Shown: positions 12,891-56,386, counted from the first letter of the stretch. The stretch is 64,000 nucleotides of DNA from an uncultured Bacillota bacterium (GCA_949287095.1 CASEFA010000001.1:69320-133319), one strand, 5' to 3'. A program made the numbers and translations. The notes: generated from the sequence alone by a model not told the origin.

Positions 12891-14960
12891 CTACAGTCCG
12901 TACTTTAACTTCTTCCTTGCGAACGTCGTCTGAGGCAGTCCCAGAATATCCGCCGCCTTCCTCGTCGTTCCGCCCTTTTTTATTGCATATTCTATAAGCT
13001 GTCTTTCCTGTCTTTCCATGATTTCATGGAAATCAACTCTGTTTTTCTCCTCCAGATCCACTGCGATGCTGAAGTGATCGGAGCCTTCGTTTTCCGAAAG
13101 GACCCTGGCCGTTCTTTCTGCTGATATTACAGCTCCATCAGCGCTTATAACCAGCCTGTGAACTACGTTTTCCAGTTCTCGCACATTGCCCGGCCAGTTA
13201 TATCTGTAAAGGACGTCAAGAGCTCCTGCCGACAGCTTCCTGCTTACGTTATACTTCTTCGCCCACTCGCTGACAAAGGCTTCAGCCAGACACCCTATGT
13301 CCTCTCTCCTGTTTCTGAGAGGAGGAACGTCTATGCAGCAGATGTTAAGCCTGTAAAAAAGGTCCTCCCTGAACGCGCCGGCATTTACAAGTTCTCTGAG
13401 AGGCACATTGTTGGCGGCAATGACTCTCACGTTTACGGAAACCTGGTGAGTTCCGCCTACCCTGTAGAAAGTGTTCTCCTGGAGAACCCTGAGAAGCTTG
13501 GACTGCATCGAAAGGGACAGGGTTCCTATCTCGTCCAGGAAGAGTATACCGTTATCGGCCATCTCAAAATATCCCTTTTTCCCTGCAGACGACGCTCCGG
13601 TAAAGGAACCCGGCTCATATCCGAAGAATTCCGATTCTGCCAGATTCTCGTGAATGGTGGCGCAGTTTATCTTGACGCACGGCATGGCGTGCCTTTCGCT
13701 GTTCTGATGTATTATGGAAAGAACTTTTTCCTTACCTGTTCCGGTTTCGCCCTGGATGATGACGTTGCAGTCGTACTTCGCAATGTTCATCACCTCTTCC
13801 ACCATTCTGGCGGTCACGGGACTCTGATATATGAAATCTCCCGCCCTTCCGGTGGCGAATATGTCCTGGCTCTTTGCGCGGCTTTCCGTAACGGCCAAAG
13901 GAACGGGTTTTCTTCCGTACATTTCATCGAGTCTGTCAAGTACAGTCTTTGACGAGCGTACCACATCCATAGTGAACACAGGGTAGTCCCTTATATACTG
14001 GTCAAAGAGGAACATGTATACCGACTTTCCTATGGATTCGGCCACCGTCTGAGCTATGGCATAGTGATTCTCCACCGTGGTAAAGTATATGCATCCCCAA
14101 GGTCTTGCCATAAACACGGCAAGAGTCTCCGCCCCGTAAATATCCTCGGCGACTATTACCATGTCGGCGCCGCAGCACTGCCTGTCCTCCGCCTTAAGCC
14201 TTTCGTAGGTATCCGCAGGGTCCGACAGGTCTGCCAGGATCACGTGATCCACATCCGGTGATACTGCAGCTTCTATAGTCTCTATGTCCAGCTCCCCTCT
14301 CAGGTTTTCATCGATTATGGCAGTAACCTCTGCAGACGGAGATGCTTTTTTCACTGCAGAAGCGTAGATAACAGACGTACAGGCGTTTCTTCCTATTACG
14401 GCGATGTTTACGGCACCTCTCTCTTCTGCCATGTTTCTCGCAGTGAGGAGACAGCCCGCCTCGTTTATGGCGGACATGGTATAAGTTTCCCCCAGAGTCT
14501 CATCTGCGGCAAAAACAGGAGACGTTTCAAAAAGTACTGCGTGTCCCTTCACCTCTATCTGTCCGTAGTTGAAGTCAACGTTTCCTATCTCATCGATATC
14601 AATCGGGATGCCGCAAAGAGAAGCAAGACAGTATACGCGGTCCCCCTCTCTGAGCGGACCTTCATATGCTCTGCCCGTCTTTTCAACGGCGCCGAGAAGA
14701 CATCCTCCCGTCCCCGTAAACGGATTATGCATCTTTCCCCTCTTGTCTACTATGTCCAGTATCTTAGCCCGTATCCGGTTCTCATTAAAACCGCAACTGC
14801 TGCATATCTGCTGGAAGCTGTCCCACTCTATATTAAGCTTTTCAATACCGACCAGAACTTCCCGGTCTGATATTTCCGTGCTGTTGTCCAGTTTCCATGC
14901 AGTTGCCGGAACAGCACCTTTCGGTTCCAGCACCCGGCTGACTCCAAAATCCTTACTCAT
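12891..14960 (-). CDS. sigma54-dependent transcriptional activator with an enzyme-like (3,5-diaminohexanoate-dehydrogenase-like) N-terminal domain
   Basis: AAA+ core with GETGTGKE Walker A, GSFTGA sigma54-contact loop, LFLDEIG Walker B, and a C-terminal Fis-type HTH (TTRKAADILGLPQTTFARKKLKYGL). About 350 N-terminal residues contain no receiver, PAS or GAF motifs. ATG 14960 with GGGAGA upstream is preferred over TTG 14984. Confidence 0.85.
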   Translation of the reverse strand: MSKDFGVSRVLEPKGAVPATAWKLDNSTEISDREVLVGIEKLNIEWDSFQQICSSCGFNENRIRAKILDIVDKRGKMHNPFTGTGGCLLGAVEKTGRAYEGPLREGDRVYCLASLCGIPIDIDEIGNVDFNYGQIEVKGHAVLFETSPVFAADETLGETYTMSAINEAGCLLTARNMAEERGAVNIAVIGRNACTSVIYASAVKKASPSAEVTAIIDENLRGELDIETIEAAVSPDVDHVILADLSDPADTYERLKAEDRQCCGADMVIVAEDIYGAETLAVFMARPWGCIYFTTVENHYAIAQTVAESIGKSVYMFLFDQYIRDYPVFTMDVVRSSKTVLDRLDEMYGRKPVPLAVTESRAKSQDIFATGRAGDFIYQSPVTARMVEEVMNIAKYDCNVIIQGETGTGKEKVLSIIHQNSERHAMPCVKINCATIHENLAESEFFGYEPGSFTGASSAGKKGYFEMADNGILFLDEIGTLSLSMQSKLLRVLQENTFYRVGGTHQVSVNVRVIAANNVPLRELVNAGAFREDLFYRLNICCIDVPPLRNRREDIGCLAEAFVSEWAKKYNVSRKLSAGALDVLYRYNWPGNVRELENVVHRLVISADGAVISAERTARVLSENEGSDHFSIAVDLEEKNRVDFHEIMERQERQLIEYAIKKGGTTRKAADILGLPQTTFARKKLKYGL

Positions 14961-15044
14961 TTTTTCTCCCAATATCGTATTCAATTACACGTTAGCTCCT
15001 ATTATGGTATTATTTCGGACAAAAAAAGTCAATGGTAATCACCG

Positions 15045-15079
15045 TTTTTGGAACACGAATTCAGTGTATATTCCAAAAA
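15045..15079. promoter_or_regulatory. 9-bp inverted repeat, candidate activator-binding site (UAS)
   Basis: TTTTTGGAA-N17-TTCCAAAAA, centred about 100 nt upstream of the -24/-12 promoter at 15160. Confidence 0.3.
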
Positions 15080-15159
15080 TGGGTCAAATGTGCCTGCGTT
15101 CACCTTCATCAGACACTGAAAACCCCGGCTTTGCCTGTATGTTAACTTTTTGGCAATTA

Positions 15160-15175
15160 TGGCACGGTAATTGCT
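15160..15175 (+). promoter_or_regulatory. sigma54 -24/-12 promoter
   Basis: TGGCACggtaaTTGCT, exact TGGCAC-N5-TTGCW spacing, about 70 nt upstream of the NhaC-family gene and divergent from the sigma54 activator gene. Confidence 0.75.
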
Positions 15176-15247
15176 TTTTAAGGGAGTACTCGCAATTATC
15201 AGAACGGGGTATGACATTTACCCGGAAATATGGAAAAGGAGACAGAT

Positions 15248-16756
15248 ATGAGTTTTCTAAAAGCATTTATTAAATTCGTACCGGTGTTCGTCCTTGCGGC
15301 TCTCATGATTATGGGATGGGACGCCCTCATCGCGGCACCACTTGCGACAATCGCGGCGGTTATAATCGCCAACCTTACCGAAAAGCTTAAGTTCAACGAC
15401 TGCCTTAAGGCGGCAATGGACAGCGTGGGCAACATTCTCGTGGCCCTGTTCATTCTCATGTTCGCATACGCCATGGCAAGCGCGTTCATGACCACGGGCG
15501 TAGGAGCATCCGTTGTAAACCTTGCTCTTTCCGTAGGCGTTACCGCTAGAACCACGGCGGTTATCGGACTTTTCGTTACCGGTATTCTTTCCGTTGCTAC
15601 GGGAACCTCCTGGGGAACCTTCGCGGCATGCGCACCTATATTCCTGTGGCTCATCCACATCGTAGACCCTAACTGCGCAGAGACCGGAAGCCTTCTCCTC
15701 ACCACCTGCGCTATCGCAGGCGGAGCATGCTTCGGAGACAACATCGGACTCATCTCCGATACCACTATCGTATCCTCCGGTATTCAGGGCGTAGAGGTAG
15801 TAGACAGAGTAAGAACCCAGGGCGTATGGTCTGTATCATGTCTCATTCTGGCAGGCGTATGCTTCTTCATCGCAGCCACCGTAATGGGACTTCCTAACAC
15901 TGCGGCTGATACCAGCGGCGTTCTGGACGCAATCCCTCAGAGCGGTCTCGACTACCTGGCAGTTGAAAGGCCTGAGGCTATAGACCTTCTCAATCAGGTC
16001 GAAAGCGGTGTATCCTATATAATGATTATTCCGCTCATACTGGTAATCGTCTTTGCAGTCATAGGCTTCAACACCTTTGCCTGCATCGGAACAGGTATAC
16101 TTTCCGCATACATCCTCGGAATCTTTGCCGGAACCACCAGCTTCACAGCAGCAGGTATCACCGAATATCTGGAGCTGTGCATGGACGGATTCGCAGACGC
16201 CGGTTCATGGGTAGTGGTAATGATGATGTGGGTTGCAGCCTTTGGCGGAATCATGGGCAAGATGCACGCCTTCGAGCCGCTTTCCAAGCTCATCGTTTCG
16301 GTTTCCAGAAACGTTAAGCAGCTTATGACCTGCAACGGTCTCCTCTGCCTCATCGGCAACGCCGTTCTCTCCGACGAGATGGCTCAGATCGTAACCGTAG
16401 GTCCTATCACCAAGAACATCGTAGAGGAAAATCTGGAAGGAACCGAAGAGGCTATGTACTCCATAAAGCTGAGAAACGCCACCTTCGGCGATGCCATGGG
16501 CGTGTTCGGCTCCCAGCTTATTCCCTGGCACGTATACCTCGCGTTCTACGTAGGTATCGCCGTAAACGTATATCCGCTGTTCGAGTTCAGCAACACAGAT
16601 TTCATAAAGTACAACTTCATGGCTATGATCGCTGTGGCATCCATGCTTCTCCTCACCCTTACCGGTGCAGACAGATTCGTTCCGCTGTTCAGAATGGCAA
16701 GAGAGCCGGAAATCCAGCTCAAGAAAAACATCAAAAAAGAAGAAGCCGCAGCTTAA
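15248..16756 (+). CDS. NhaC-family (Na+/H+ antiporter-like) transporter, probable amino-acid carrier
   Basis: About 500-aa polytopic protein with GTSWGTFAACAPIF and GACFGDNIGLISDTT motifs typical of the NhaC C-terminal domain family. GGAG precedes ATG 15248 by 6 nt, so this start is preferred over 15230. Confidence 0.8.
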   Translation: MSFLKAFIKFVPVFVLAALMIMGWDALIAAPLATIAAVIIANLTEKLKFNDCLKAAMDSVGNILVALFILMFAYAMASAFMTTGVGASVVNLALSVGVTARTTAVIGLFVTGILSVATGTSWGTFAACAPIFLWLIHIVDPNCAETGSLLLTTCAIAGGACFGDNIGLISDTTIVSSGIQGVEVVDRVRTQGVWSVSCLILAGVCFFIAATVMGLPNTAADTSGVLDAIPQSGLDYLAVERPEAIDLLNQVESGVSYIMIIPLILVIVFAVIGFNTFACIGTGILSAYILGIFAGTTSFTAAGITEYLELCMDGFADAGSWVVVMMMWVAAFGGIMGKMHAFEPLSKLIVSVSRNVKQLMTCNGLLCLIGNAVLSDEMAQIVTVGPITKNIVEENLEGTEEAMYSIKLRNATFGDAMGVFGSQLIPWHVYLAFYVGIAVNVYPLFEFSNTDFIKYNFMAMIAVASMLLLTLTGADRFVPLFRMAREPEIQLKKNIKKEEAAA

Positions 16757-25684: not shown

Positions 25685-25745
25685 CCTTTGTTCCTCCGTA
25701 TATAAATCGGGTGCGGACAGATACGCCCGCACCCTCAGTTTAAAT

Positions 25746-43090: not shown

Positions 43091-43102
43091 TCACCTCCGG
43101 TA

Positions 43103-43639: not shown

Positions 43640-43652
43640 TTTCTATACCTCC

Positions 43653-44360: not shown

Positions 44361-44444
44361 AATTACTTTACCTCCAGTTTGAATAAATTTTTCCCCGTTT
44401 CGGGGAAATTCACGCCAGTAATTATAAAAACAGCCTATTCATAT

Positions 44445-44460
44445 TGCAATTCACGTGCCA
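44445..44460 (-). promoter_or_regulatory. sigma54 -24/-12 promoter
   Basis: Minus strand TGGCACgtgaaTTGCA, about 85 nt upstream of the spmA-like ATG at 44360. Confidence 0.75.
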
Positions 44461-44678
44461 CTACTCAGCTCCTTTCAATAATACTGTTTTTTTCAGTGTC
44501 GCCCGCCGTGTCACACGGCCCTTCGTTCCGATCAAATCCTGTCTGTCACTTCTTCAAATTGCACGATAATATGATTAAATGGGGTTTTATCGGGTGTTTG
44601 CGGAAATTTCATATTATACTGTTATGTTGCCAACACCCGGCTAATTGTGTATCATACACTGAGGAGGATTTAAGACTT

Positions 44679-45317: not shown

Positions 45318-45336
45318 CAGCACATCAGGCAGTACG

Positions 45337-45390
45337 AAAAAGCACCGCTTTCCGGCAAGATCATATCCGGATAAAGCGGTGCTTACTTTA
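45337..45390. terminator. bidirectional hairpin terminator
   Basis: AAAAAGCACCGCTTTccgg...ccggATAAAGCGGTGCTT between convergent genes. Confidence 0.7.
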
Positions 45391-45421
45391 TGATGCAGTT
45401 TTTTCTTTCAGCTTATACGTC

Positions 45422-46720
45422 TTACACATCGTTTCTCGCCACGTCTTCGAAAGTTTCCCTCTTAACGGCGATGTAGCTTTCGCCGCCTTTGAGCATAACC
45501 GTTGCAGGCTTTGGCAGACGGTTATAGTTGGAAGCCATGGAGTAGTGATATGCTCCGGCGGTACATACGGCTACCGTATCGTATCTGGTGATGGATTCAG
45601 GGAACATTACGTCCTCCTGGATTATATCTCCCGATTCACAGCATCTTCCTACCAGTGACGCCTTAAAGTCGGCCTTTTCGTTCATCTTGTTCGCGGTAAG
45701 GCAGGTGTAGGCGGCCTTGTAGAGGGCATATCTCGGACTGTCGGTCATTCCTCCGTCAATGGAAACGTAGTTCTTGTATCCCGCTATCTTCTTTACCGTT
45801 CCGACGGTGTAGAGCACCATTCCGGCATCTGCCACTATGGAGCGGCCCGGTTCCATGTGAATCTCCGGCATGTCAAGTCCCAGCCTTGCGCATGTATCCT
45901 TTACGACCTTTGCAACCTGGGAAATCTTTTCGGCAATGTCAAGGTGCGGATCCGATTCCACATAGCGAACTCCGTAACCTCCGCCGAGGTCGAGAACTTT
46001 CGTGACAAATCCGTGCTTCTCCTTCATTTCGGCTATGAACTCAAGCATTACGACGGCGGCTCTCTCGAACACGTCCTCCGCGAATACCTGAGAGCCTACG
46101 TGGCAGTGGAAACCTCTCAGATCCACGTTAGGATAGCCCATGGCGGCAACGGTTATCTCCTCTGCCTGCCCCGTCTCTATGGCGCTGCCGAACTTAGAGT
46201 CAACCTGTCCGGTGGAAATGGCCTCGTAGGTGTGTGGGTCGATTCCCGGAGTTAGCCTTAAAATAATCTTCTGTCTGAAGCCTCTCTTTGCGGCCTCCTT
46301 ATCTACGGCCTTCACTTCTTCGATGTTATCAGCGACAAAGTATCCGATGCCGTTATCCATGGCGTAGGCTATGTCCTCATCTGTCTTATTGTTTGAATGG
46401 AAAAACGCCTTTGACAGATCGTATCCGGCCTTTACCGCAGTATATATCTCTCCCGAGGACACCACGTCTATTCCCATGTCCTCTTCCTTCATTATCTCGT
46501 AGATTCTCTTGAAGCAGTTGGCCTTTGAGGCGTAAAGAGGAGCGGCATCATCGCCGAAGCTTTCCTTCATCGCCTTCTTGTAAAGCCTGCAGTTGGCGCG
46601 GATTCTGTCCTCGTCCATGAGATAGAGAGGCGTTCCGTATTTTTTCGCAAGCTCCACCGTATCCTGTCCCGCAAACAGCAGATGTCCTTCAGGTGATACT
46701 GAAATGTTTTCACAGATCAT
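45422..46720 (-). CDS. lysA: diaminopimelate decarboxylase
   Basis: Start at ATG 46720 (MICENISVSPEGHLLFAG...), preferred because the longer track ORF would overlap dapF. YASKAN PLP-lysine, GGGYGV and CESGD motifs. Confidence 0.9.
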   Translation of the reverse strand: MICENISVSPEGHLLFAGQDTVELAKKYGTPLYLMDEDRIRANCRLYKKAMKESFGDDAAPLYASKANCFKRIYEIMKEEDMGIDVVSSGEIYTAVKAGYDLSKAFFHSNNKTDEDIAYAMDNGIGYFVADNIEEVKAVDKEAAKRGFRQKIILRLTPGIDPHTYEAISTGQVDSKFGSAIETGQAEEITVAAMGYPNVDLRGFHCHVGSQVFAEDVFERAAVVMLEFIAEMKEKHGFVTKVLDLGGGYGVRYVESDPHLDIAEKISQVAKVVKDTCARLGLDMPEIHMEPGRSIVADAGMVLYTVGTVKKIAGYKNYVSIDGGMTDSPRYALYKAAYTCLTANKMNEKADFKASLVGRCCESGDIIQEDVMFPESITRYDTVAVCTAGAYHYSMASNYNRLPKPATVMLKGGESYIAVKRETFEDVARNDV

Positions 46721-46751
46721 TTTTTTACCTTTCCTTTCACATAAAACATAT

Positions 46752-47591
46752 TTACAGGCTGAAGTCCTCAGCGACGGCTTCACCCTTTGCAACGACATCG
46801 GCAGGTCCCGAGAGAAAGATATCTCTGACCCGTTCTCCTTCAGACGCAACGTCAATTACGAGGCGTCCTCCTTCCATATCGACGGCAACATTTTTCCCGG
46901 AAACGACGCCCTTCATGGTCAGAACTGCTGCAACGGCTCCTGTTCCCGTTCCGCATGCAAAGGTAAAATCCTCCACGCCTCTTTCAAAGGTTCGCTCGAA
47001 AAGGATTCCATCTTCCTCCAGGTCGTAAAAATTTACGTTGGCGCCTTTTGGATAGCCTTCATAAGCTCTGAGGGCTCTTGCGGCAGCGTAAAGTCCCTCC
47101 TTAGGGTACCGCCTTAATCCCTTCCATTCTACCACACAATGGGGGATTCCGGGATCTCCCAGCTCGACATAAGAGCATATGTACGTTTTTTCATCGGCAG
47201 TCAGCTTCTCATCTATACGCACCTTCGTCGGTTCGTTGAGCCTTATCCGATACTCGCTTTCCGATAATCTTTCGCCAATAACGAGCCCTGCGGTAGTTTC
47301 CACTCTCTGGATTTCACCTGCCAGACCGTTTTCAAATCCGTACCTGCATATGCACCTGGCTCCGTTTCCGCACATCTCCCCCATGGAGCCGTCCGAATTG
47401 AAAAAGAGCATCCGAAAATCACCGGTTACTTCGGCTCTTTCCACCGCCATAAAGCCATCGGCTCCTATGGAAAATCTCCTGTGACAAAGGGTTCTCGCTA
47501 AATCGGAAAGCCGGTTAAGCGGAATGTTTTCGTCTATATTATTTATTATGATGAAGTCGTTTCCGGCTCCGTTCATTTTCCAAAATTTCAT
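46752..47591 (-). CDS. dapF: diaminopimelate epimerase
   Basis: 279 aa. MNGAGNDFIIINN, catalytic MCGNGARC and ACGTGTGA. Confidence 0.9.
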   Translation of the reverse strand: MKFWKMNGAGNDFIIINNIDENIPLNRLSDLARTLCHRRFSIGADGFMAVERAEVTGDFRMLFFNSDGSMGEMCGNGARCICRYGFENGLAGEIQRVETTAGLVIGERLSESEYRIRLNEPTKVRIDEKLTADEKTYICSYVELGDPGIPHCVVEWKGLRRYPKEGLYAAARALRAYEGYPKGANVNFYDLEEDGILFERTFERGVEDFTFACGTGTGAVAAVLTMKGVVSGKNVAVDMEGGRLVIDVASEGERVRDIFLSGPADVVAKGEAVAEDFSL

Positions 47592-47601
47592 ATCTATATA
47601 T

Positions 47602-48003
47602 CTATACGCTTCGCATTTCGTCAGCCCGCTTCTTAAGCTGGGAAACAGTCATTTCCTCACCTACAAGGAGCATGTTCTTCGCGTTCTTATATTCAAAACC
47701 TATTTTTATCACCGTAACGTAAGGTTCATTCATTACCTTACCCTGACGGGCCTTCTTCTTGCCGCTGGAGCTGGCTTTAGAAAATGACAGGCCTGTAATA
47801 TCATCCTTCGGTACCATCAGCTCCGACTCGCAGCACGGACACTTGAAATACACGCTGTTGTTGCCCAGAAGCTTCCACTCTTCGCGGTAAAGCCACTTCG
47901 GTTCTTTATTCTGACAAAAGGGACATTCCCCTATATCTTTGTCTGCAAATCTCTGATATATATCGTATACGGCATCTTCTTTTCTCGTGTATTCTTCCGC
48001 CAT
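47602..48003 (-). CDS. hypothetical zinc-ribbon protein
   Basis: 133 aa. CPFCQ...22 residues...CPCCES four-Cys ribbon, then a Lys-rich linker and a small beta-rich C-terminal domain. 10 nt upstream of dapF. Confidence 0.55.
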   Translation of the reverse strand: MAEEYTRKEDAVYDIYQRFADKDIGECPFCQNKEPKWLYREEWKLLGNNSVYFKCPCCESELMVPKDDITGLSFSKASSSGKKKARQGKVMNEPYVTVIKIGFEYKNAKNMLLVGEEMTVSQLKKRADEMRSV

Positions 48004-48024
48004 CCTTATCTCCTGTTTAAATAC

Positions 48025-48046
48025 GGGGCAGTACGCATACTGCCCC
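48025..48046 (-). terminator. hairpin after LD-carboxypeptidase copy 2
   Basis: GGGGCAGTA-cgca-TACTGCCCC 9-bp stem. Weak U tract. Confidence 0.45.
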
Positions 48047-48059
48047 TAAATGAATAAAG

Positions 48060-48980
48060 CTATCTTTCAACCTTGAAGGTGATTTTTCCCGTAGCGGTAT
48101 CCATAGTGCATACTGCACCTAAAGGAAGCGTCATCATAGGCTTGCTGTGACCTGACTGAACATTATACATTACAGGTATGTCGATACCCTCAAGTATATC
48201 CTTTATGTCTGCATACACATCATACTCAGGCAGCTTCTCGTTTTCCACTTCTGTGAACTGTCCGAGCAGAATTCCGCTGCACTTTGCAAGCTTGCCGGAA
48301 TTTCTCAGGTGGTACATCCACTTCTCGATCTTTGACAGCGGCTCGCATACCTCTTCGACGAAGAGGATTCTTCCTTCTGTATCCAGGTCGTAAGGAGTTC
48401 CCACACTGGCGGAAAGAAGAGAAAGATTTCCGCCTGTGAGTATTCCTTCTGCCTTTCCTTCCTTCAGAACTTTCACGTCAAAGCCTGCAGGGTTCTTGAA
48501 TTCGAAATCTCCGTCTGCGTTTATTGCCGCAAAGAGAGACTCTGCAGTCTCATCGTCAAAATCGTTGAGGATATTGGATGAAACCATAGGTCCATGGAAC
48601 GTTACCAGGCCGCAGTTCTGGTTTATTCCCAGATGGATGTTGGTAACGTCGCTGTAGCCTACGAAGATCTTAGGATTGTTTCTGATTACATCGTAATCGA
48701 GGTATTCCATAATTCTGCTGCTTCCGTCGCCGCCTCTCACGCAGAACACAGCCTTAACCTCAGGGTCTGCGAACATTTTGTTTATCCACTCGCCTCTGGT
48801 TTTGCCGGTTCCGGCCATGAAGCCGCCGTAGTTTTCCTCGAGATTATCAGCAGCCTTTACCTTGTATCCGAGATCCTCCATCTTCTTTATGAGAGCAGGG
48901 GTCTTGCCCTCATCTACAGGAGAGCTCGGGCATATGATACCTATGGTATCGCCTTTGTTTAATTTTTCAGGATATCTCAT
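48060..48980 (-). CDS. S66-family LD-carboxypeptidase, copy 2
   Basis: 306 aa. GYSDVTNIH and SGH motifs. Collinear with 42167-43090; roughly half the residues look identical by eye. Confidence 0.8.
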   Translation of the reverse strand: MRYPEKLNKGDTIGIICPSSPVDEGKTPALIKKMEDLGYKVKAADNLEENYGGFMAGTGKTRGEWINKMFADPEVKAVFCVRGGDGSSRIMEYLDYDVIRNNPKIFVGYSDVTNIHLGINQNCGLVTFHGPMVSSNILNDFDDETAESLFAAINADGDFEFKNPAGFDVKVLKEGKAEGILTGGNLSLLSASVGTPYDLDTEGRILFVEEVCEPLSKIEKWMYHLRNSGKLAKCSGILLGQFTEVENEKLPEYDVYADIKDILEGIDIPVMYNVQSGHSKPMMTLPLGAVCTMDTATGKITFKVER

Positions 48981-49008
48981 TTTAGTTTACCTTCTTTCAG
49001 ACAAAATC

Positions 49009-49557
49009 CTAGAATCCGTATCCCCAGAGAAGGTTTACGATTACGCAGGATGCAATAAGGGAAGCCAGGTCGCCGAGAAGGCCTGCCGCTACGGAATGTC
49101 TGGAGTTGGAAACGCCTACAGATCCGAAGTATACGGCAAGGATGTAGAATGTGGTCTCGGTGGAGCCCATTGCAACGGATGCGATACGTCCGATCTGGCT
49201 CTGAGTTCCGTAAGTGGTAACCAGCTCGGTCATCATACCTTCAGCACCGCCGCCGGAGAAGGATCTCATTACCGCGAAAGGAAGAACCTCTCCAGGACAT
49301 CCGATAATGCTAGTTATAGGGTCTATCAGGTTACAAAATGCGTCCATTGCGCCGGATGCTCTCAGCATACCGATAGCGCAGAGCATTGCAACCAGATAAG
49401 GAATAATCATTACTGCTGTGGAGAATCCGTCTTTTGCTCCCGTTGTAAATACGGAGTAAATAGGTACTCTCTTTGTAAGTGCGTAACCTACCACAATGAA
49501 GATTACCACAGGTATGGCCCATGTGGATATTGCGTTAAATACGTCCTGAACTGACAT
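49009..49557 (-). CDS. spmB: SpmB-like membrane protein, copy 2
   Basis: 182 aa. TGAKDGFSTAVMIIPYLVAMLCAIGMLRASGAMD. Confidence 0.75.
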   Translation of the reverse strand: MSVQDVFNAISTWAIPVVIFIVVGYALTKRVPIYSVFTTGAKDGFSTAVMIIPYLVAMLCAIGMLRASGAMDAFCNLIDPITSIIGCPGEVLPFAVMRSFSGGGAEGMMTELVTTYGTQSQIGRIASVAMGSTETTFYILAVYFGSVGVSNSRHSVAAGLLGDLASLIASCVIVNLLWGYGF

Positions 49558-49572
49558 TATATTAGCCCTCCT

Positions 49573-50286
49573 TTACGCTTCTTTGCTTCCGAAATCGGTC
49601 TTCAGCTTGTAACCTTCAGGAAGAACTATAGGGTCGTCTCCTATGTAGTCTTCGTTTACCTCTAAGGTGCCTGCTGCGATTTCTCTCTCGATTACGTTCT
49701 CAAGCTTCCATCTCTTTGTTCTCTGGAAGAGGAGAGAGAAGCCTACGCCTGTTACAGTGGAAATAGTCGTAGCTATGATAACAGGTACAACGATTTCAGC
49801 TGCGCCATCTGCCTGGATGGAAGCACGGATGCTTATTACAGTGGATGGAAGCAGAGTGATGGACGTTGTGGAAATAGCCATGAGCATGCACTGAGCGTTA
49901 GTTGCGATGTTCTTCGTCTTGTTGAGAGTCTGAAGCTCCTGCATGGTCTTAAGTCCGAAAGGTGTTGCAGCATTACCGATTCCCAGGATGTTGGCTGCGA
50001 AGTAAAGAGCCATTATGGAGTTGGCAGGGTGATCAGCCGGAACATCAGGGAAGAGCAGTCTCATAACAGGGTAGATTGCCTTGCCCAGCTTATCGCAGAG
50101 GCCGGATTCCTCCATGAGCTTCATCAGTCCGCAGAAGAATGCCATGGTACCGATGAGTCCGAGAGCGATGTCAACGCCGGACTGTGCGAAGTCAAAAATG
50201 TTCTGAAGTACGGCATCCATAGTGCCCGTGATGCCGCCGGCAACCACGCCTATGAGCATGAATGCCGCGAAGAGATAGTTCATCAT
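49573..50286 (-). CDS. spmA: SpmA-like membrane protein, copy 2
   Basis: AAGGAGGAAATTCTAATT precedes ATGATG at 50286. The 38 extra codons in the track ORF would run through the sigma54 promoter's 5' UTR and are discarded. Confidence 0.75.
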   Translation of the reverse strand: MMNYLFAAFMLIGVVAGGITGTMDAVLQNIFDFAQSGVDIALGLIGTMAFFCGLMKLMEESGLCDKLGKAIYPVMRLLFPDVPADHPANSIMALYFAANILGIGNAATPFGLKTMQELQTLNKTKNIATNAQCMLMAISTTSITLLPSTVISIRASIQADGAAEIVVPVIIATTISTVTGVGFSLLFQRTKRWKLENVIEREIAAGTLEVNEDYIGDDPIVLPEGYKLKTDFGSKEA

Positions 50287-50395: not shown

Positions 50396-50411
50396 TGCAA
50401 TTAGTGTGCCA
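50396..50411 (-). promoter_or_regulatory. sigma54 -24/-12 promoter
   Basis: Minus strand TGGCACactaaTTGCA, about 110 nt upstream of ATG 50286. Confidence 0.75.
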
Positions 50412-50654
50412 AGAAATATTGTGATGAAATTGTGGTAATTTCGGGGTTTATATGTGGACATAGGACGTATATCGCCAAAATGTGTCCTGTTTTCAGGAGG
50501 CGTATTCCTGATTTTAGGACTATACTTCCCGGTGCACCTGTCCGTAACCTCTATTCCCGCCCCTTTTTCACCAAATTAAAGGTTATATGAAGGCATGATT
50601 TTTGCTATAATATATCCTACGGTAATTCATATTTTTTACGAGGTGACAATACAC

Positions 50655-51269
50655 ATGAAAATGCGCAAAATAGAATACAACTATTCCAGTGCCTTCAAGC
50701 AGCTTCTGCTGGCCGTGATAGCTCTCTACGTTCTCCTTTACTATCTGGTAGTAGTGGAGATAAAGGTTTTCGATATTAAGGAATATGCGGACAGCATACT
50801 TTTCTTCCGCTCGACCATCGTGTACCTGGTTATCTTTGCGGTGCTGGGATGTCTGTTCTTCGCCCACAGGTTCTGCTACAGCATATATACCCCTGATGAG
50901 CTGACATTCTACAACCGTCTGCTTTTCCGACAGAAAACGCTGGACTTTTCCAGAGTGAAGCTTGCAGTCTTTGATACGTTCGGAGTGAAGTTCTACGATA
51001 AGGAAGTGTCTTTTCCCATCACCGAAAAGCCCTTCTTTACGCTTCCTTTCTACAGGGGTGGCTTTATAGACCCGGTGCAGATAGACAAGCTGCACCATTT
51101 CCTGCAAGACAGCAAAAAAATACCCGTAGTCAAAAACTACAAGGTACTTTTGGGATACGGCAAGAGCTGGAGACTGCTCTACGCGTTCTACATATTCTTC
51201 ACCATATGCTTCATCATAGCCGGCGTAACTCCGCTGACTGCGGTAATCGTGCTGTTTTTAAACCACTAG
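50655..51269 (+). CDS. hypothetical membrane protein, paralogue 2 of 44679-45317
   Basis: GAGGTGA precedes ATG 50655. Same architecture and shared C-terminal blocks (L/TxPFxRGG...D..F/L..L, ...LPGY/LLGYxKxWK/R... final TM). Confidence 0.6.
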   Translation: MKMRKIEYNYSSAFKQLLLAVIALYVLLYYLVVVEIKVFDIKEYADSILFFRSTIVYLVIFAVLGCLFFAHRFCYSIYTPDELTFYNRLLFRQKTLDFSRVKLAVFDTFGVKFYDKEVSFPITEKPFFTLPFYRGGFIDPVQIDKLHHFLQDSKKIPVVKNYKVLLGYGKSWRLLYAFYIFFTICFIIAGVTPLTAVIVLFLNH

Positions 51270-51270
51270 G

Positions 51271-51528
51271 CTAGGTTTCGGAATTTCCGCCGTCTCCGGC
51301 GGTTTCACCGGTTTTACCGGCTTTGTCCGATTCGCCCGGCTCCTGTGATTTCTCTGAGTTTTCCAGAGCTTCACGGATCCGCTGCTCCTTTTCCATCTTT
51401 TTCTTCTGCTGTTCCTTGAGACTGTCCATCATGCTCATTCCGGGACGCCTGAGGATGTAGATGAAGCAGAATATGAGGAGTATCACTCCTATTACGGACT
51501 TTACCGATATATCGAGATTGTCAAACAT
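51271..51528 (-). CDS. hypothetical small membrane protein with charged tail
   Basis: 85 aa. One TM helix (VIGVILLIFCFIYIL), then a Lys/Glu-rich and Gly/Glu/Thr tail. Confidence 0.4.
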   Translation of the reverse strand: MFDNLDISVKSVIGVILLIFCFIYILRRPGMSMMDSLKEQQKKKMEKEQRIREALENSEKSQEPGESDKAGKTGETAGDGGNSET

Positions 51529-51604
51529 GTTACCATTATCCTTTCGCGAAAAATTTCATTTCGCATTATAAACGATTGTTCAGATTAAATCAAGGAGGTA
51601 CCTT

Positions 51605-52087
51605 TTGAATAAGCATTTTTCCATCGTAAACAGGCGCAGCGTCATCTACGTTACTATAGGTATGCTGCTTCTCATAGCGCTCCTTGGAGTATGTCTTTCC
51701 TTCGCCCTCAAAGGCAGCAAGCTCTGGTTCATAGGAGTCGTAATATTCGGCGGGCTGCTGCTCTTCGGAGTGCTCATAGCACGTTCAGTTCTGGATGCCG
51801 GAATCGACGTAATAAGGGGAACTGTCATTCTCCCGGACATCAAACACCCGGAAAGGGGCAAAGTTCCCGCTTTTCACGTGGCTGACCTTGAAGATGTCGG
51901 CCTCTTCACCCTTGACGGTAAAGAGCTTGATCCTGCAGCGGATAAGCTTGCAGGGGCCAAAGTGGTCTTCTCCCTCAAGGACGGAGACAGTAAAGAATAC
52001 TTTCCCCTCTCCATTACGAAAAAGCAGTTTGACAGGCTTAGGCGCGGAATGCTCCTCATGGCCTCCGAAGCCGATGACAACTTCTAA
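51605..52087 (+). CDS. hypothetical membrane protein (2 TM plus soluble domain)
   Basis: AGGAGG 6 nt before a TTG start. 160 aa. Architecture is reminiscent of the two paralogues at 44679 and 50655. Confidence 0.5.
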   Translation: MNKHFSIVNRRSVIYVTIGMLLLIALLGVCLSFALKGSKLWFIGVVIFGGLLLFGVLIARSVLDAGIDVIRGTVILPDIKHPERGKVPAFHVADLEDVGLFTLDGKELDPAADKLAGAKVVFSLKDGDSKEYFPLSITKKQFDRLRRGMLLMASEADDNF

Positions 52088-52096
52088 AATGCGCCG

Positions 52097-53950
52097 TCAG
52101 AACTTTATGCCGTATTTTTTAAGCTTGTCGTAAAATACGCTCTTTGACATATCCAGTTCCTCCATAGCCTTGTGCTTGTCCCCTTGATACTTCAGCAGAG
52201 CGGTTTCGAGCACCCTCGCCTCCTCCATGGCGAGGTGCTCTTTCATGGTGACCGGCTCTTTTTGGCGTCCTATTCTGAGATGCTCTATGTAGATTATGTT
52301 AGAATCGCATATGGTCACGGCCCGCTCGATGACGTTTTCGAGCTCTCTTACGTTTCCAGGCCAGTCATATGACAAAAGCTTTCTGAGCGCTCCTCCGGAA
52401 AACTGCTTCATTTCCATTCCGTAAGTTTCGCATATTCTCTTCATCAGCTTTGTTATGAGTATGTAGAGGTCCGATTTTCTGTCCCTTATAGGCGGTATCT
52501 CTATGGGAAATACGTTTATCCTGTAAAAGAGATCCTGCCTGAACCTTCCCGCCGCTACCTCCTCTTCCAGATTTCTGTTCGTCGCGGCGATTACCCTGAC
52601 GTCAATTTTTACAGGCTTTGATGAACCTACCCTGTATATTATCTTGTCCTGCAGGACGTGCAGCAGCTTTACCTGAATATCCATGGGGATATCGCCTATT
52701 TCGTCCAGGAATATGGTTCCCTTGTCGGCGGCCTCGAAAAATCCGATCTTGCCTTCCGCCCTGGCTCCGGTAAACGCGCCTCCAACGTAGCCGAAAAGCT
52801 CGCTCTCGAACAAACTGGGTGCTATGGCGTTGCAGTTCACCTCTATAAAAGGGGCTCCCGGCGTACCTGCATTATGTATGTCCCTTGCCAGCATTGATTT
52901 TCCGGTCCCGCTTTCACCTGTGATTATGACGTTGAATTTACTCCTTGAGGCCTTATAGGCCATGTACTTCACCTCACGGATCTGGCTGCTTACTCCGGCA
53001 AAATTCTCGAAGGGTTCCTCCGGAAAGTCCCCCGTATGCTCCACTTCGTTTTCCGACGCCTTCTGTTCCAGCTGATGTATGATCTCATTTCTATCGCTTA
53101 AGAGCCGTTCCAGGTTCTCGGCAGCCTCCAGTATGAGGTACACCCCGTTTTCCGGACATTCACCCATGCCGTGACACGGAACTACGCTGCATATGAAGGG
53201 TCTCTTATTTATTTCGTATATTCTTTCAAGAAAGCCGTCGGATCTTCCGTCCAGTACAGCAAAAAGCTCTGAGGCGACGGCTGAATCGTCAAACACGTCA
53301 AAGTAGTTTCTTCCGGTAACTTCTATCCTGGAGTACCCGGCTTCCTTCTCCATGTACGGCTTTCCTCTCAGAAGGCCGCCCGCATCCTCGTTCCTGACGC
53401 TGTATCCCCTCGCCTGAAAGAACTTTATCTCCCCTGTCGCTCCGTCTATTACCACCATATTTCCCACGGCTGAGAAATAGCCCATCCTGTACTTTTTATC
53501 GTTTACCGAAATGAGTGTCTCATGCTTTACAGTATCCACGGAAACAAAGATCCGAAATCCGTAGTAGACCGCTTCCACCGTCATAGGAGTGGAAAGCTGA
53601 TGCTCCCGCATCGCCTTATATATCGGTCTTACCTTTTCGTTCTTATATACTCCCATGGCTATTATGACGTCGCCTTCCCTGATCTCGCCGTCTTTTATGT
53701 TCAGCATCTTAAGATCCTCTGTGGAAAGGTTCCCGTCGTCTTCACCCATTTTGCTGTCCGCTATTATTACGATATCACCGTCTTCTATTTTCCCCGCAGG
53801 ATGAGACTCTCCCGCGCTTATGGAAATTCCGGTAATCTCCTCCGCGCGTCGGTTGCACATCCTGATTATTCCGTCTTTGTCTAAAAGGATAACCCCCATA
53901 TTCAGGCTATCCATAAGGCGCTGCACCTCATAACCACAGTTTTTATTCAA
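52097..53950 (-). CDS. sigma54-dependent activator (PAS-like N-terminus plus unknown domain, AAA+, Fis-type HTH)
   Basis: 617 aa from a TTG start preceded by GGGAG. GESGTGKS, GGAFTGA, IFLDEIG, and C-terminal KHKAMEELDMSKSVFYDKLKKYGI. Confidence 0.85.
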   Translation of the reverse strand: MNKNCGYEVQRLMDSLNMGVILLDKDGIIRMCNRRAEEITGISISAGESHPAGKIEDGDIVIIADSKMGEDDGNLSTEDLKMLNIKDGEIREGDVIIAMGVYKNEKVRPIYKAMREHQLSTPMTVEAVYYGFRIFVSVDTVKHETLISVNDKKYRMGYFSAVGNMVVIDGATGEIKFFQARGYSVRNEDAGGLLRGKPYMEKEAGYSRIEVTGRNYFDVFDDSAVASELFAVLDGRSDGFLERIYEINKRPFICSVVPCHGMGECPENGVYLILEAAENLERLLSDRNEIIHQLEQKASENEVEHTGDFPEEPFENFAGVSSQIREVKYMAYKASRSKFNVIITGESGTGKSMLARDIHNAGTPGAPFIEVNCNAIAPSLFESELFGYVGGAFTGARAEGKIGFFEAADKGTIFLDEIGDIPMDIQVKLLHVLQDKIIYRVGSSKPVKIDVRVIAATNRNLEEEVAAGRFRQDLFYRINVFPIEIPPIRDRKSDLYILITKLMKRICETYGMEMKQFSGGALRKLLSYDWPGNVRELENVIERAVTICDSNIIYIEHLRIGRQKEPVTMKEHLAMEEARVLETALLKYQGDKHKAMEELDMSKSVFYDKLKKYGIKF

Positions 53951-54059: not shown

Positions 54060-54755
54060 TTATGAACGGATTATGGATTTAAGAAAAGCCTTGAGCCTTT
54101 CGGATCTCGGATTTTCGAATATGTCTTCAGGAGAACCTTCCTCCACTATCTCGCCGTCGTTCATGAATATTACCCTGTCGGCAACCTCTCTGGCAAATCC
54201 CATCTCGTGGGTAACCACTATCATAGTCGTGTGCTCCTCTGCCAGCTTTTTCATAACGTTCAGCACCTCTCCGGTTATCTCCGGATCGAGGGCCGAAGTC
54301 GGCTCGTCGAAGAGCATGAGGTCAGGGTTCATGGCAAGAGCTCTCGCTATGGCCACTCTCTGCTTCTGTCCGCCGGAGATGTGAGCCGGATACACGTCAG
54401 CCTTTGTCTCAAGGCCTACCATCTTAAGGAGCTCCATGGCCCTTTTCCTCGCCTCCTCCTTATCCATGCCCTTTACCTTTACAGGCGCGTAGGTAATGTT
54501 CTCAAGGCATGTCATATGAGGGAACAGGTTGAAGTGCTGGAACACCATTCCCGTCTCGCCGTTAAGTTCTATATTTCCCGAAGTCACTTTGTTGAGTCCG
54601 TTTATGCAGCGAAGGAGGGTGCTCTTTCCGGAGCCGGAAGGCCCGATGATGGCGACGGTTTCACCTTTTGATACCGTAAGACTAACACCTTTGACGACTC
54701 TCAGGTCTCCGAAGTCCTTCACTATATCCGTCATCTTGAGGATTATCCTGTCCAT
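54060..54755 (-). CDS. amino-acid ABC transporter ATP-binding protein (GlnQ-like)
   Basis: 231 aa. [36 protein letters not shown]. Confidence 0.9.
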
Positions 54756-55417
54756 CAGTATTCCTCCTTTGCATCATATCTCATAAAGTACTTCTCTATC
54801 CGGCCCGCAACGAGGGTCAGAATGCTGCACATGATGAGATAAATTGCCGCAGCCCAGAAAAATATCGATATATCGGTCTCCCTGTTCACAGCGCTCTGAG
54901 TAGCCTTCATCAGCTCTATAACGCCTATACTGGAGGCGAGAGCCGTGTCCTTTACCAGCGTTATGGCTTCGTTTACAACCGGAGGAAGTATAGTCTTCAT
55001 GGTCTGGGGAAGTATGATATCCTTCATAGTCTGCCCTCTGGAAAGACCCAGGACGTGGGCTGCTTCATACTGTCCTCTGTCGATGCCGTTTATTCCTCCC
55101 CTGTATATCTCCGCAAAATACGCGGCGTAGTTAAGGACAAAGGTTATGCAGGCAGTCGGCAATGCCGGTATTGTTATATCCAGAGTAAAAGGGAAAAAGA
55201 AATAAAAGAAAAACAGCTGAAGCATCAGCGGCGTTCCTCTGAAAACCCATACGTAGAATTTACATACCCAGCTTAGAGGCTTGAACCTGCTTCTCTCTCC
55301 AAGAGCTATGGGCAGCCCCAGCGGAAGAGACAAGACCAATGTTATTACGAAAAGAATTATTGTGGTTTTAACGCCCGTAACCATGAAGGGCATAAACTGT
55401 GAGAAGTATTCACTCAT
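54755..55417 (-). CDS. amino-acid ABC transporter permease (His/Glu/Gln/Arg/opine family)
   Basis: 220 aa. [15 protein letters not shown] and the EAA loop region. Confidence 0.85.
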
Positions 55418-55446
55418 TTACATTTCCTGCTTCCATTCATAGATCA

Positions 55447-55466
55447 GGCGGGGCAAAGACCCCGCC
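55447..55466 (-). promoter_or_regulatory. intercistronic stem-loop after the binding-protein gene
   Basis: GGCGGGGcaaagaCCCCGCC between the binding-protein and permease genes. No U tract. Confidence 0.45.
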
Positions 55467-55537
55467 GGTTTATTATAATATGTGCCGCAGCTTTTATCAA
55501 GTGCCATGCCGTGCCGTCAAGGCGCTCCGGCCGGACT

Positions 55538-56386
55538 TTACTCTATCGGTTCGCATATTACGATATCTCTTCCGAACCACTTTTCGCTTATTTCAGCAGC
55601 CGTTCCGTCATCTACCAGAGCCTGAAGCGCCTCGTTTACCTTGTCTCTCAGCTCAGTGTTATCCTGCGCAAATCCGATGGCATAGAAGTCGTCTCCCAGG
55701 TCGTAGGTGCACTCCTTCATCTCTCCGCCTAAGTTGTTGTTAGTGTATTCGCCCAGAACCTGGTCGACTGCTATTACATCCACTCTGCCTGCCTTAAGAT
55801 CCATTATCGCCAGGTCGTAGGTGTCGTACTCGGTGATGTTGCCTGCGAAGGAATCGTACGCCGGATCAGCCTCCAGCATCTGAAGTGCTGATGAATCCAC
55901 CTGCGTTCCTATCTTAAGGTCTGCGAGCTCTTCGCCTGACTGAACATCAGGACCTCCGTCTGCAAGGGACATGAGAACGATTTTATTGTTGAGATATTTG
56001 TTGGAAAATGCCATAGCCTCCATTCTCTCAGGAGTTACCGAAAGGCCGTTCCAGAGGCAGTCTACCGTACCTGCCTTAAGCTCGATTTCCTTGGCGTCCC
56101 AGTCTATAACCTTGAATTCCATGGTCATGCCCAGCTTCTCGCCTACGGCGTTGGCAAGGTCGATGTCAAAGCCAACTATATTTCCTTCCTCGTCTCTGAA
56201 GCCCATAGGTGCAAAAGCATCATCGATGCCGACTACTATGGTGTCGCTTTCCTCTTCGGCCGCATCTGCGTCTGCTTCTCCCTCAGCGTTTCCGCCTGAC
56301 GCCTCATCGCTTCCGCATGCCGTAAGAGCTGTCATTCCAAGTACCATGGCCGCAGCCATGAAAACCGCAAGTAATTTCTTCTTCAT
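55538..56386 (-). CDS. amino-acid ABC transporter substrate-binding lipoprotein
   Basis: 282 aa. Lipobox LTAC and family-3 binding-protein motifs (GFDIDLANAVGEKLG). Confidence 0.85.
   Translation of the reverse strand: MKKKLLAVFMAAAMVLGMTALTACGSDEASGGNAEGEADADAAEEESDTIVVGIDDAFAPMGFRDEEGNIVGFDIDLANAVGEKLGMTMEFKVIDWDAKEIELKAGTVDCLWNGLSVTPERMEAMAFSNKYLNNKIVLMSLADGGPDVQSGEELADLKIGTQVDSSALQMLEADPAYDSFAGNITEYDTYDLAIMDLKAGRVDVIAVDQVLGEYTNNNLGGEMKECTYDLGDDFYAIGFAQDNTELRDKVNEALQALVDDGTAAEISEKWFGRDIVICEPIE

Follow-up and report, generated by a model that had tools for sequence, protein, structure and literature searches.

The 64-kb stretch of DNA analysed here (64,000 nucleotides from an uncultured Bacillota bacterium, GCA_949287095.1 CASEFA010000001.1:69320-133319; hereafter the window) contains three genes for sigma-54 activators, which we call EBP1, EBP2 and EBP3, and five predicted sigma-54 promoters, P1 to P5. 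We consider it likely that these form three activator-specific branches of one sigma-54 regulon, given over to the scavenging of cell-wall stem peptides and D-amino acids. By protein identity the bacterium is close to Candidatus Avanaerovorax faecigallinarum, of the family Anaerovoracaceae; most of the window's proteins are 96-100% identical to those of that chicken-gut metagenome-assembled genome (locus L040).

The promoters on which this proposal is built are the following.

15160-15175, plus strand: P1, TGGCACGGTAATTGCT, an exact match to TGGCAY-N5-TTGCW
28928-28943, minus strand: P2, TGGCATATTTTTTGCT, an exact match to the same pattern
44445-44460, minus strand: P3, TGGCACGTGAATTGCA, an exact match
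50396-50411, minus strand: P4, TGGCACACTAATTGCA, an exact match
50591-50606, plus strand: P5, AGGCATGATTTTTGCT, a match with one mismatch, 49 nucleotides 5' of the start codon of the gene B_mem

The first four had been reported in an earlier note on this DNA, and all of them are present on the strands given: TGGCAY-N5-TTGCW occurs exactly four times in the window, compared with a mean of 0.06 in shuffled sequence, and none of 100 dinucleotide shuffles reached four. In each of P1-P4 the GG and GC doublets lie exactly 10 bp apart in a TGGCAC-N5-TTGCW-like sequence, and when we scanned with only GG and GC required at the right spacing, P1-P4 scored 10-11 of 11 consensus positions and every other candidate 9 or fewer. 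The same note had placed the promoters before target genes, and here too we agree, since all four are intergenic and oriented toward a gene that starts 55-110 nucleotides downstream. Allowing one mismatch added four matches where 3.5 were expected, which is the level of chance, and we rejected these with the sole exception of 50591-50606. This fifth promoter escaped the pattern of the earlier note because its first base is A in place of T; it retains GG and GC, and it resembles P2 beyond the core (18 of 22 bases).

For comparison, one genome per species was scanned with an SpmB-like alignment, which yielded 80 loci (designated by L-numbers below), mostly from Anaerovoracaceae and allies: Emergencia, Ihubacter, Senimuribacter, Hornefia, [Eubacterium] infirmum, Filifactor and Aminipila. 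In about 58 of the 62 loci that could be evaluated, all from different species, we found a strict or near-strict -24/-12 element 60-200 bp upstream of spmA. In these related loci the T that precedes TGG, for which no selection had been made, was conserved at 1.0 bit, matching the extended sigma-54 consensus. The P3-type element is found in 11 of 11 A-type sequences (10 loci and the window), nine of them strict and two ending in TTGCG. Upstream of mem, the gene family to which B_mem belongs, 43 of 60 loci carry NGGYAY-N5-TTGCN, mostly as AGGCAY, whereas base composition leads us to estimate about 0.004 chance occurrences per locus. P1 is kept before the same transporter gene in three relatives, as TGGCACAGATATTGCT in L081 and L082 and as TGGCATAACTATTGCT in L166, and most EBP2-family genes in L083-L130 have divergent sigma-54 promoters beside them. 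The surrounding intergenic DNA cannot be aligned across species, whereas the -24/-12 elements persist; within the window, the P3 and P4 intergenic regions likewise do not align with MAFFT. The form and conservation of P1-P5 make it very probable that they are genuine sigma-54 promoters and that they have cognate activators.

The three activator genes are as follows.

12891-14984, minus strand: EBP1, with an N-terminal sensor like L-erythro-3,5-diaminohexanoate dehydrogenase (Kdd), AAA+ domain and HTH_50 DNA-binding domain; Pfam Sigma54_activat, E = 1.5e-62; contact loop GSFTGA
29119-31227, plus strand: EBP2, with N-domain, PAS domain, AAA+ domain and winged-helix-like C-terminus; Sigma54_activat, E = 1.9e-68; contact loop GSFTGA
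52097-53950, minus strand: EBP3, with two PAS domains, AAA+ domain and HTH_8 C-terminal DNA-binding domain; Sigma54_activat, E = 2.4e-63; contact loop GAFTGA

All three thus match Sigma54_activat with E-values of 1e-62 to 1e-68, and their translations contain P-loops of the form GE[ST]GTGK[ES] (GETGTGKE, GESGTGKE and GESGTGKS) together with intact sigma-54 contact loops. Pfam found a receiver domain in none of them, in keeping with the earlier description of three activators with different, non-receiver sensors. The reconstruction of clostridial sigma-54 regulons by Nie et al. 2019 (PMC6615313), which covers 39 activator groups and is concerned with amino-acid and peptide catabolism, accepts GSFTGA variants as functional. 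By analogy with the family, sigma-54 polymerase would sit at each -24/-12 element and fire only after an AAA+ activator had remodelled the closed complex; the cognate activator would occupy a site 75-130 bp upstream, and its N-terminal sensor would respond to a small molecule that turns the protein on.

The EBP1 branch comprises these features.

11562-12875, minus strand: dsdA, D-serine ammonia-lyase; NCBIfam equivalog NF002823, Pfam PALP
13845-14984, minus strand: the EBP1 N-terminal domain
15042-15086, no strand assigned: candidate EBP1 enhancer, inverted CCGTTTTTGG / CCAAAAATGG arms with a GGGTCA block, 74-118 bp upstream of P1, as read off the sequence
15230-16756, plus strand: NhaC-family transporter, the target of P1; Pfam Na_H_antiporter; start at 15230 or 15248

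EBP1 would activate P1 and with it the NhaC-family amino-acid transporter, which has weak NCBIfam matches to NhaC and ArcD. The divergent arrangement of EBP1 and P1 claimed earlier recurs in L081, L082 and L166, where the transporter gene is divergent from KDD_N-type activators of 47-48% (L081, L082) and 40% (L166) identity. The candidate enhancer block is partly conserved in L081 and L082, and GGGTCA repeats occur in L166. On the other side, dsdA lies 15 nucleotides downstream of EBP1 on the same strand and would be co-transcribed with it; its product scores 675 bits against NF002823, where the cut-off is 246, and so is assigned at equivalog level.

The sensor of EBP1 deserves particular comment. 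Residues 13-357 align with residues 8-351 of the 358-residue Kdd structure PDB 7dl3, that is, across the entire enzyme (E = 6e-30), and the precomputed Pfam family KDD_N (PF26370) covers the domain. Unlike the enzyme, the EBP1 domain is fused to a sigma-54 AAA+ domain, and it reads GRNACTS where the glycine-rich dinucleotide motif of 7dl3 is GANGKSG, so that the Kdd motif is not retained. Because this motif is degenerate, we regard the domain as probably an enzyme-derived ligand sensor that is inactive as a dehydrogenase. The fusion is a family in its own right: about 21 of the best 150 representatives at 50% identity are 679-717 amino acids long, and Sigma54_activat was found in all seven long relatives sampled.

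The EBP2 branch lies around the second activator gene.

24836-28889, minus strand: P2 operon, encoding M55 D-aminopeptidase, S58/P1 peptidase, amino-acid racemase, Dtd (D-aminoacyl-tRNA deacylase) and a polysaccharide-deacetylase-family protein; Pfam, NCBIfam
29008-29033, minus strand: candidate EBP2 enhancer at P2, two tandem units AATAAGATTTAATG and AATGGGATTTAAAA, identified computationally
31282-32499, after EBP2: M20 amidohydrolase; Pfam
32489-33622, after the M20 gene: alanine racemase (Alr); Pfam

The N-domain of EBP2, of about 215 amino acids, has no family match, and the PAS domain is assigned through PAS_8 (3e-4). No Fis-type helix-turn-helix was found in the protein; its C-terminus has a weak winged-helix match (HTH_12, E = 0.002) and is conserved in the family alignment. 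The open reading frame extends back to 29032, and homologues align from M30, so the start at 29119 given in the earlier note is likely. The N-domain alone, used as a metagenome query, found no loci, and an alignment-based metagenome scan with the sensor domain gave 80 further loci. In most of these a sigma-54 promoter is divergent from the activator gene, and the pairing of EBP2 with the divergent P2, also proposed previously, is in this way conserved across the family. The gene families of the P2 operon stand behind sigma-54 promoters beside EBP2-family genes in L087, L088, L089, L091, L092 and others. In the intergenic regions of the family, units like AATRGGATTWAAA recur every 10 bp or so. 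EBP2 would activate P2 and the M55 and S58 D-aminopeptidases, racemase, Dtd and deacetylase behind it; the presence of Dtd in the operon fits a cell that faces a high D-amino-acid load.

The third branch involves a pair of divergent promoters.

45422-50286, minus strand: module B operon, encoding SpmA-like and SpmB-like proteins, S66 LD-carboxypeptidase, a 133-amino-acid four-cysteine protein, DapF and LysA; Pfam
50485-50498 and 50506-50519, read on the plus strand: candidate EBP3 enhancer, dyads TCCTGTTTTCAGGA and TCCTGATTTTAGGA, 21 bp apart, identified computationally
50655-51269, plus strand: B_mem, membrane protein for which AlphaFold2 predicts (pLDDT 85) two transmembrane helices, then a PH-like domain, then one more transmembrane helix; no Pfam match
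54060-56386: amino-acid ABC transporter operon, after which EBP3 comes as the last gene

In 34 B-type loci an orthologue of the EBP3 sensor domain (30-54% identical) is encoded no more than about 8 kb from the module, in most cases 3-8 kb upstream. By k-mer counting in B-type upstream regions we found a dyad, TCC[TG]-N6-[AC]GGA (TCCK-N6-MGGA), that is present in 32 of 49 of these regions, 13 of which have an exact pair spaced by 21 bp. Its density is 3.5 per kb in B-type upstream regions versus 0.125 per kb in the DNA of all loci, an enrichment of 28-fold. In the intergenic DNA of the window the dyad is confined to the interval between P4 and P5. Of the stricter TCCT-N6-AGGA the window has three copies, two between P4 and P5 and one inside the EBP2 coding sequence. 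The two dyads lie about 80 and about 100 bp (about 90 bp) from the -24 elements of both promoters, and because they lie between them, P4 and P5 appear to be a divergent pair with one common enhancer. Relatives also have the dyad at sigma-54 promoters that lie directly downstream of the EBP3 orthologue and at others before lysA. EBP3 would bind the two dyads midway between the promoters and activate P5, with B_mem, and P4, with the genes for the SpmA-like, SpmB-like, LD-carboxypeptidase, four-cysteine, DapF and LysA proteins. The gene order of module B is conserved in many loci, and LysA is assigned by an NCBIfam equivalog (408 bits against a cut-off of 298). The earlier note had correctly listed DapF and LysA, but had them merely nearby; their genes close the P4 operon, at whose end there is a terminator-like hairpin (45357-45343).

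Several smaller observations concern the surroundings of this branch. Neither a sigma-54 element nor an EBP3 dyad was seen upstream of the ABC operon that precedes EBP3; the region (56387-56560, minus strand) holds TTGACA...TATACT, which resembles a sigma-70 promoter, and a leader, some 130-170 nucleotides long, for which Rfam gave no match. The 133-amino-acid protein (47602-48003, minus strand) contains CPFC...CPCC, is zinc-ribbon-like and without a family match; in many B-type operons its gene stands after ldc and before dapF or lysA. Between B_mem and EBP3 (51270-52087) are a gene for an 85-amino-acid protein (minus strand) and one for a 160-amino-acid membrane-anchored protein (plus strand); in relatives this interval spans 2-3 kb and contains an extra sigma-54 promoter and M19 or M15 peptidase genes.

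Module B has a counterpart behind P3.

42167-44360, minus strand: module A operon, encoding SpmA-like (43653-44360), SpmB-like (43103-43639) and S66 LD-carboxypeptidase (42167-43090) proteins; Pfam Gate (twice), S66 and S66C
44679-45317, plus strand: A_mem, membrane protein divergent from P3, paralogue of B_mem (E = 8e-23); no Pfam match

Between the modules the SpmA-like proteins are 56% identical, the SpmB-like proteins 71% and the S66 enzymes 52%; judged from these sequences, the two modules are old paralogues, and the mem gene was included in the duplication. The unit mem - promoter - spmA-spmB-ldc is conserved in related loci. Both S66 paralogues match Peptidase_S66 and S66C (E-values of 1e-32 to 1e-38). 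All four SpmA/B-like proteins contain the Gate (nucleoside recognition) domain of Pfam, in adjacent pairs, and public sources name the window's Gate proteins spore maturation protein A/B. The context is not one of sporulation, since neither module contains dacB, the neighbour is an S66 enzyme and the promoter is of the sigma-54 type.

The mem proteins match no family of Pfam or NCBIfam, and in the PDB no clear relative emerged apart from a generic PH-like fold: the model of B_mem has a PH-like beta-sandwich with a helix, and its best PDB fold matches are PH-like but weak (E = 4e-3). The mem gene is always divergent from the spmAB-ldc operon and, in most loci, is itself under a sigma-54 promoter; some relatives have it in one transcription unit with the gene of an EBP2-like activator, for which reason its product may be a regulatory partner.

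Module A (42140-45427) is also a 3.3-kb presence/absence polymorphism within one population. It is present in L163 and L165, whereas L164, with a B_mem of 100% identity, has in its place 248 bp of DNA without relation to it, flanked by homology that begins again at 42139 (in the ffs promoter) and at 45428 (where lysA ends); nor is the module found in L039 and L041. Compared with the window, L041 is a mosaic (B_spmA 100%, B_ldc 95%, dapF 76%, lysA 96%, dnaX 77%), and such a mosaic of identity along module B in L041 and L039 suggests recombination among close relatives. Downstream of module A is the signal recognition particle (SRP) RNA gene (41967-42066), with its own perfect sigma-70 promoter, followed by dnaX-ybaB-recR.

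What might these branches do? The earlier note had read the gene content as pointing to substrates derived from peptidoglycan, and the relatives strengthen that theme, since activators of these families drive genes there for M19, VanX-like M15, S11, S12, M55, S58, racemase, Alr and Opp proteins. L026, for example, has a sigma-54 promoter and the gene of an M19 dipeptidase after its EBP3 orthologue, and encodes a VanX-like M15 D-Ala-D-Ala dipeptidase beside mem. L002 has an S11 DD-carboxypeptidase gene after its EBP2-like gene and further sigma-54 promoters before a racemase gene and before genes for an S12 beta-lactamase-family protein and an Opp transporter, while in L010 and L015 dapF-lysA has its own sigma-54 promoter beside the EBP3 orthologue. 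Within the window, S66, M55, S58, M20, Alr, racemase, Dtd and DapF were all assigned by Pfam. Because the S66 enzymes have no obvious N-terminal signal peptide, as read from their sequences, their substrates would need to be imported; the only membrane proteins of the modules are the SpmAB-like pair and mem. From this gene content we propose that stem peptides or fragments containing diaminopimelate (DAP) would be imported, probably through the SpmAB-like Gate-domain pair, that the terminal D-Ala would be taken off by the cytoplasmic peptidase, and that after further peptidase steps D-Ala, D-Glu, D-Ser and meso-DAP would be racemised, deaminated or decarboxylated to L-amino acids, pyruvate and lysine, with DAP reaching lysine through LysA.

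A number of observations weigh against this interpretation in one part or another. Within the 64-kb window, the only part of the genome covered, no rpoN gene was found. P3 overlaps a good sigma-70-like promoter: the TTGCAA of its -12 element can also be read as a -35 box, and a perfect TATAAT follows at a distance of 17 bp. Of the 49 B-type upstream regions, 17 have no dyad within 260 bp, and in some the dyads are closer to the mem promoter; all of the enhancer sites, indeed, are computational. The S66 proteins score 138 bits against the LdcA equivalog NF008424, for which the cut-off is 378, and because they fall so far below it the substrate of the LD-carboxypeptidases is uncertain; their assignment to the S66 family holds. 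Finally, DapF-LysA could simply serve lysine biosynthesis.

The last point bears on the strongest alternative, that the modules serve turnover of the cell's own wall and the supply of lysine and DAP – a form of housekeeping recycling – rather than the use of foreign debris as food. In E. coli, enzymes of the LdcA type work in recycling, the last steps of lysine biosynthesis are catalysed by DapF and LysA, and the modules sit among the housekeeping genes ffs, dnaX and recR. Yet duplicated and variably present modules suit an accessory nutritional trait, and Dtd, the racemases, DsdA and several D-aminopeptidases speak of a heavy D-amino-acid load; moreover, sigma-54 with ligand-sensing activators is typical of inducible catabolic operons in Clostridia (PMC6615313). 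We hold the housekeeping role to be rather doubtful, and note that it and the use of foreign debris are not mutually exclusive. The 'nucleoside recognition' name of the Gate domain also led us to consider MccF-like antibiotic detoxification by the S66 enzymes, which we set aside because the neighbourhood consistently contains DapF/LysA, VanX, DD-carboxypeptidase and M19.

The scavenging regulon that we favour leaves a choice as to which activator serves P3, and hence module A. The earlier note had named EBP3 for both module promoters. For P4 this agrees with the paired dyads; for P3 it does not, in that no dyad is present there and a site of the EBP2 type is found instead.

44566-44591, plus strand: candidate EBP2-family enhancer at P3, units AATATGATTAAATG and AATGGGGTTTTATC, identified computationally

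P3 shares with the EBP2/P2 region a tandem site of the AATRGGATTWAA type. Positions 29012-29033 (minus strand) and 44566-44587 (plus strand) share a 22-mer at 19 of 22 bases, compared with 17 for the best of 300 shuffled pairs, and AATRGGRTTWWA occurs only in the P2 and P3 regions (0.16 occurrences expected). When a weight matrix built from eight EBP2 sites, all from relatives, was run over both strands of the window, the P2 site came first (17.0 bits) and the P3 site second (14.7 bits); with the same matrix, A-type promoters had a median of 9.5 versus 4.6 for B-type promoters (p = 0.006). We had also tried a narrow expression for the EBP2-type repeat, RGRTDWAA, and gave it up for the matrix, as it yielded a weak contrast between A and B types and missed the window's own site. 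The neighbourhood in relatives points the same way. An EBP2-like gene directly follows A_mem in L002, L007 and L008 (46-56% identical over the full length) and in L086, and in these loci A_mem has its own sigma-54 promoter; L084, L088 and L129 each have an EBP2-like gene and, divergent from it, a sigma-54 promoter driving an ldc whose product is 61% identical to the module A enzyme, and in L088 this A-type ldc is followed by M55 and racemase genes. On account of the shared 22-mer, the matrix ranks and this neighbourhood, we assign P3 to EBP2 or to a paralogue of its family. Here, too, there are points on the other side: the relatives' EBP2 sites were selected by eye, our attention was drawn to the 22-mer only post hoc, and the P3 units fit only a looser form of the motif, RGRTDWAA finding none of them.

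Our preference, by a modest degree, is for the window's own EBP2 at P3, so that EBP2, or a paralogue elsewhere in the genome, would probably activate module A as well. That the activator is such a paralogue, encoded outside the window, with the window's EBP2 controlling P2 only, seems to us unlikely. L002 and L007 do carry two EBP2-family paralogues, one beside A_mem and one beside a racemase or peptidase operon, and module A, as a presence/absence cassette, may have arrived without its own regulator or with the regulator elsewhere; against this, the near-identity of the P2 and P3 sites is what would be predicted for one protein recognising both, and no second EBP2-like gene is present in the 64 kb. 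Less probable again is the activation of both P3 and P4 by EBP3 alone. EBP3 is the only activator with no divergent promoter directly beside it, it lies 1.7 kb from P4, and modules A and B are paralogous, but the EBP3-associated dyad is absent from all 11 of the A-type promoters (P3 included), A-type modules in relatives adjoin genes of the EBP2 family and not of the EBP3 type, and the site upstream of P3 is held in common with P2. As for the idea that P1-P5 are chance matches or ordinary sigma-70 promoters, with the activators acting elsewhere, we find it scarcely credible: the lack of rpoN in the window, the sigma-70-like TTGCAA-17-TATAAT that P3 overlaps and a TATAAT immediately after P5 can be cited in its favour, but so few exact sites were expected, and the conservation of the elements before the same genes across species – where the flanks are not conserved, the TATAAT downstream of P3 occurs in this species only and not in other A-type loci, and an unselected T is retained – makes either origin very unlikely.

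It is useful to set the window beside known systems. The dsdC-dsdXA genes of E. coli serve D-serine detoxification, and as in that system a D-serine ammonia-lyase is paired here with a dedicated transporter and a specific activator; the activator, however, is of the sigma-54 class and not the LysR-type DsdC, and the transporter is of the NhaC family and not GntP/DsdX. The dpp (dciA) operon of B. subtilis, regulated by CodY/AbrB, likewise uses an M55 D-aminopeptidase, DppA, for D-Ala peptides, whereas regulation in the window would be by sigma-54 activators. LdcA is the cytoplasmic LD-carboxypeptidase of murein-peptide recycling in E. coli and Pseudomonas. Like it, a cytoplasmic S66 enzyme with both S66 domains, as encoded in the modules, would remove terminal D-Ala from imported tetrapeptides; unlike ldcA, the window's genes are sigma-54-dependent, duplicated and in operons with those for Gate-domain proteins and DapF-LysA, and the modules include no AmpG, Opp or Mpp uptake system. 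In the sporulation operon dacB-spmA-spmB of B. subtilis, a peptidoglycan carboxypeptidase gene is also co-transcribed with those of the SpmA/SpmB Gate pair. There the enzyme is a DD- (S11) and here an LD- (S66) carboxypeptidase, and in place of a sporulation sigma factor the window has a sigma-54 promoter and a ligand-sensing activator; to our knowledge, most of the hosts (Emergencia, [Eubacterium] infirmum, Filifactor) are not spore-forming.

The closest parallels are the Clostridiales regulons of PrdR, OrdR, LeuR, XcyR, YpdR and further activators. As described in PMC6615313, these too have one-component activators, mostly with PAS sensors, encoded beside or divergent from TGGCA-N6-TTGC promoters, which drive amino-acid and peptide catabolic operons with NhaC-family transporters among their targets. 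By contrast, none of the 39 groups has targets for LD-carboxypeptidase, SpmAB-like proteins, DapF-LysA, M55/S58 D-aminopeptidase or DsdA, the sensor domain types listed do not include a Kdd-like one, and in the passages considered here Anaerovoracaceae are not among the genera named; PMC6615313 nowhere uses the words carboxypeptidase, peptidoglycan, D-amino or D-serine. A 2025 cross-phylum survey makes no mention of peptidoglycan or carboxypeptidase, and a 2011 comparative study tied sigma-54 generally to precursors of the cell exterior and not to stem-peptide catabolism. Among the top-ranked results of full-text literature searches there was no paper joining sigma-54 with LD-carboxypeptidase or SpmAB, and such searches found none joining it with diaminohexanoate dehydrogenase. 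The mechanism is the established design of sigma-54 and its activators; new here are the activator families and their targets, in an arrangement that is conserved in dozens of related species and for which we found no description in the literature searched.

In the gut, cell-wall debris is abundant, and which anaerobes eat or sense D-amino-acid peptides is poorly known. The window offers, for an amino-acid-fermenting gut family, a conserved and testable hypothesis consisting of inducible sigma-54 operons, candidate enhancers and three activator families, and it would add regulon types and the Kdd-like sensor type to the clostridial sigma-54 catalogue, both absent from the 2019 reconstruction (PMC6615313). 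It also gives a lead on the transport substrate of SpmA/SpmB, an open question in spore biology.

We venture two further ideas, tentatively and only as a pair: that EBP1 would represent a class of sigma-54 activators with a disabled amino-acid dehydrogenase as sensor, and that the SpmA/SpmB-type Gate pair may be an importer of DAP-containing stem peptides or of DAP itself, feeding an LD-carboxypeptidase-DapF-LysA route from foreign wall to lysine. Dipicolinate derives from an intermediate of the DAP pathway. The related Gate-domain protein SpoVV/YlbJ has been described as a dipicolinate transporter, and the role of SpmA/SpmB in spore maturation is still unexplained (bioRxiv 10.1101/2022.02.25.481979). 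An importing role for SpmAB fits both this dipicolinate transport and the link of spmAB to a carboxypeptidase gene in B. subtilis; if it is true, the SpmAB family would gain its first biochemical function.

A few features of the leaders and of neighbouring genes remain to be described. The leader between P3 and spmA (44390-44449, minus strand) contains a terminator-like hairpin, TTTCCCCGAAACGGGGAAA, with a T-rich tail. The P3 and P4 leaders have hairpins, one of them terminator-like, but with fold z-scores of only -1.8 and -1.6, and we claim no attenuator; an Rfam scan found the SRP RNA only and no riboswitch in any leader. A perfect sigma-70 promoter, TTGACA-17-TATAAT (37640-37720, minus strand), belongs to an operon that encodes two SNF transporters and an M19 dipeptidase. 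We rejected a TGGCAC upstream of this operon (about 37650) as a sigma-54 site, as it has the wrong spacing to any GC and is adjoined by that promoter. In the relative L091, unlike the window's M19 operon, M19 and alr are sigma-54-dependent. Lastly, a gene of the BKACE (beta-keto acid cleavage enzyme) family, which includes the lysine-fermentation enzyme Kce, stands alone between rapZ and whiA (5731-6561, minus strand) and is of interest given the proposed route from DAP to lysine.

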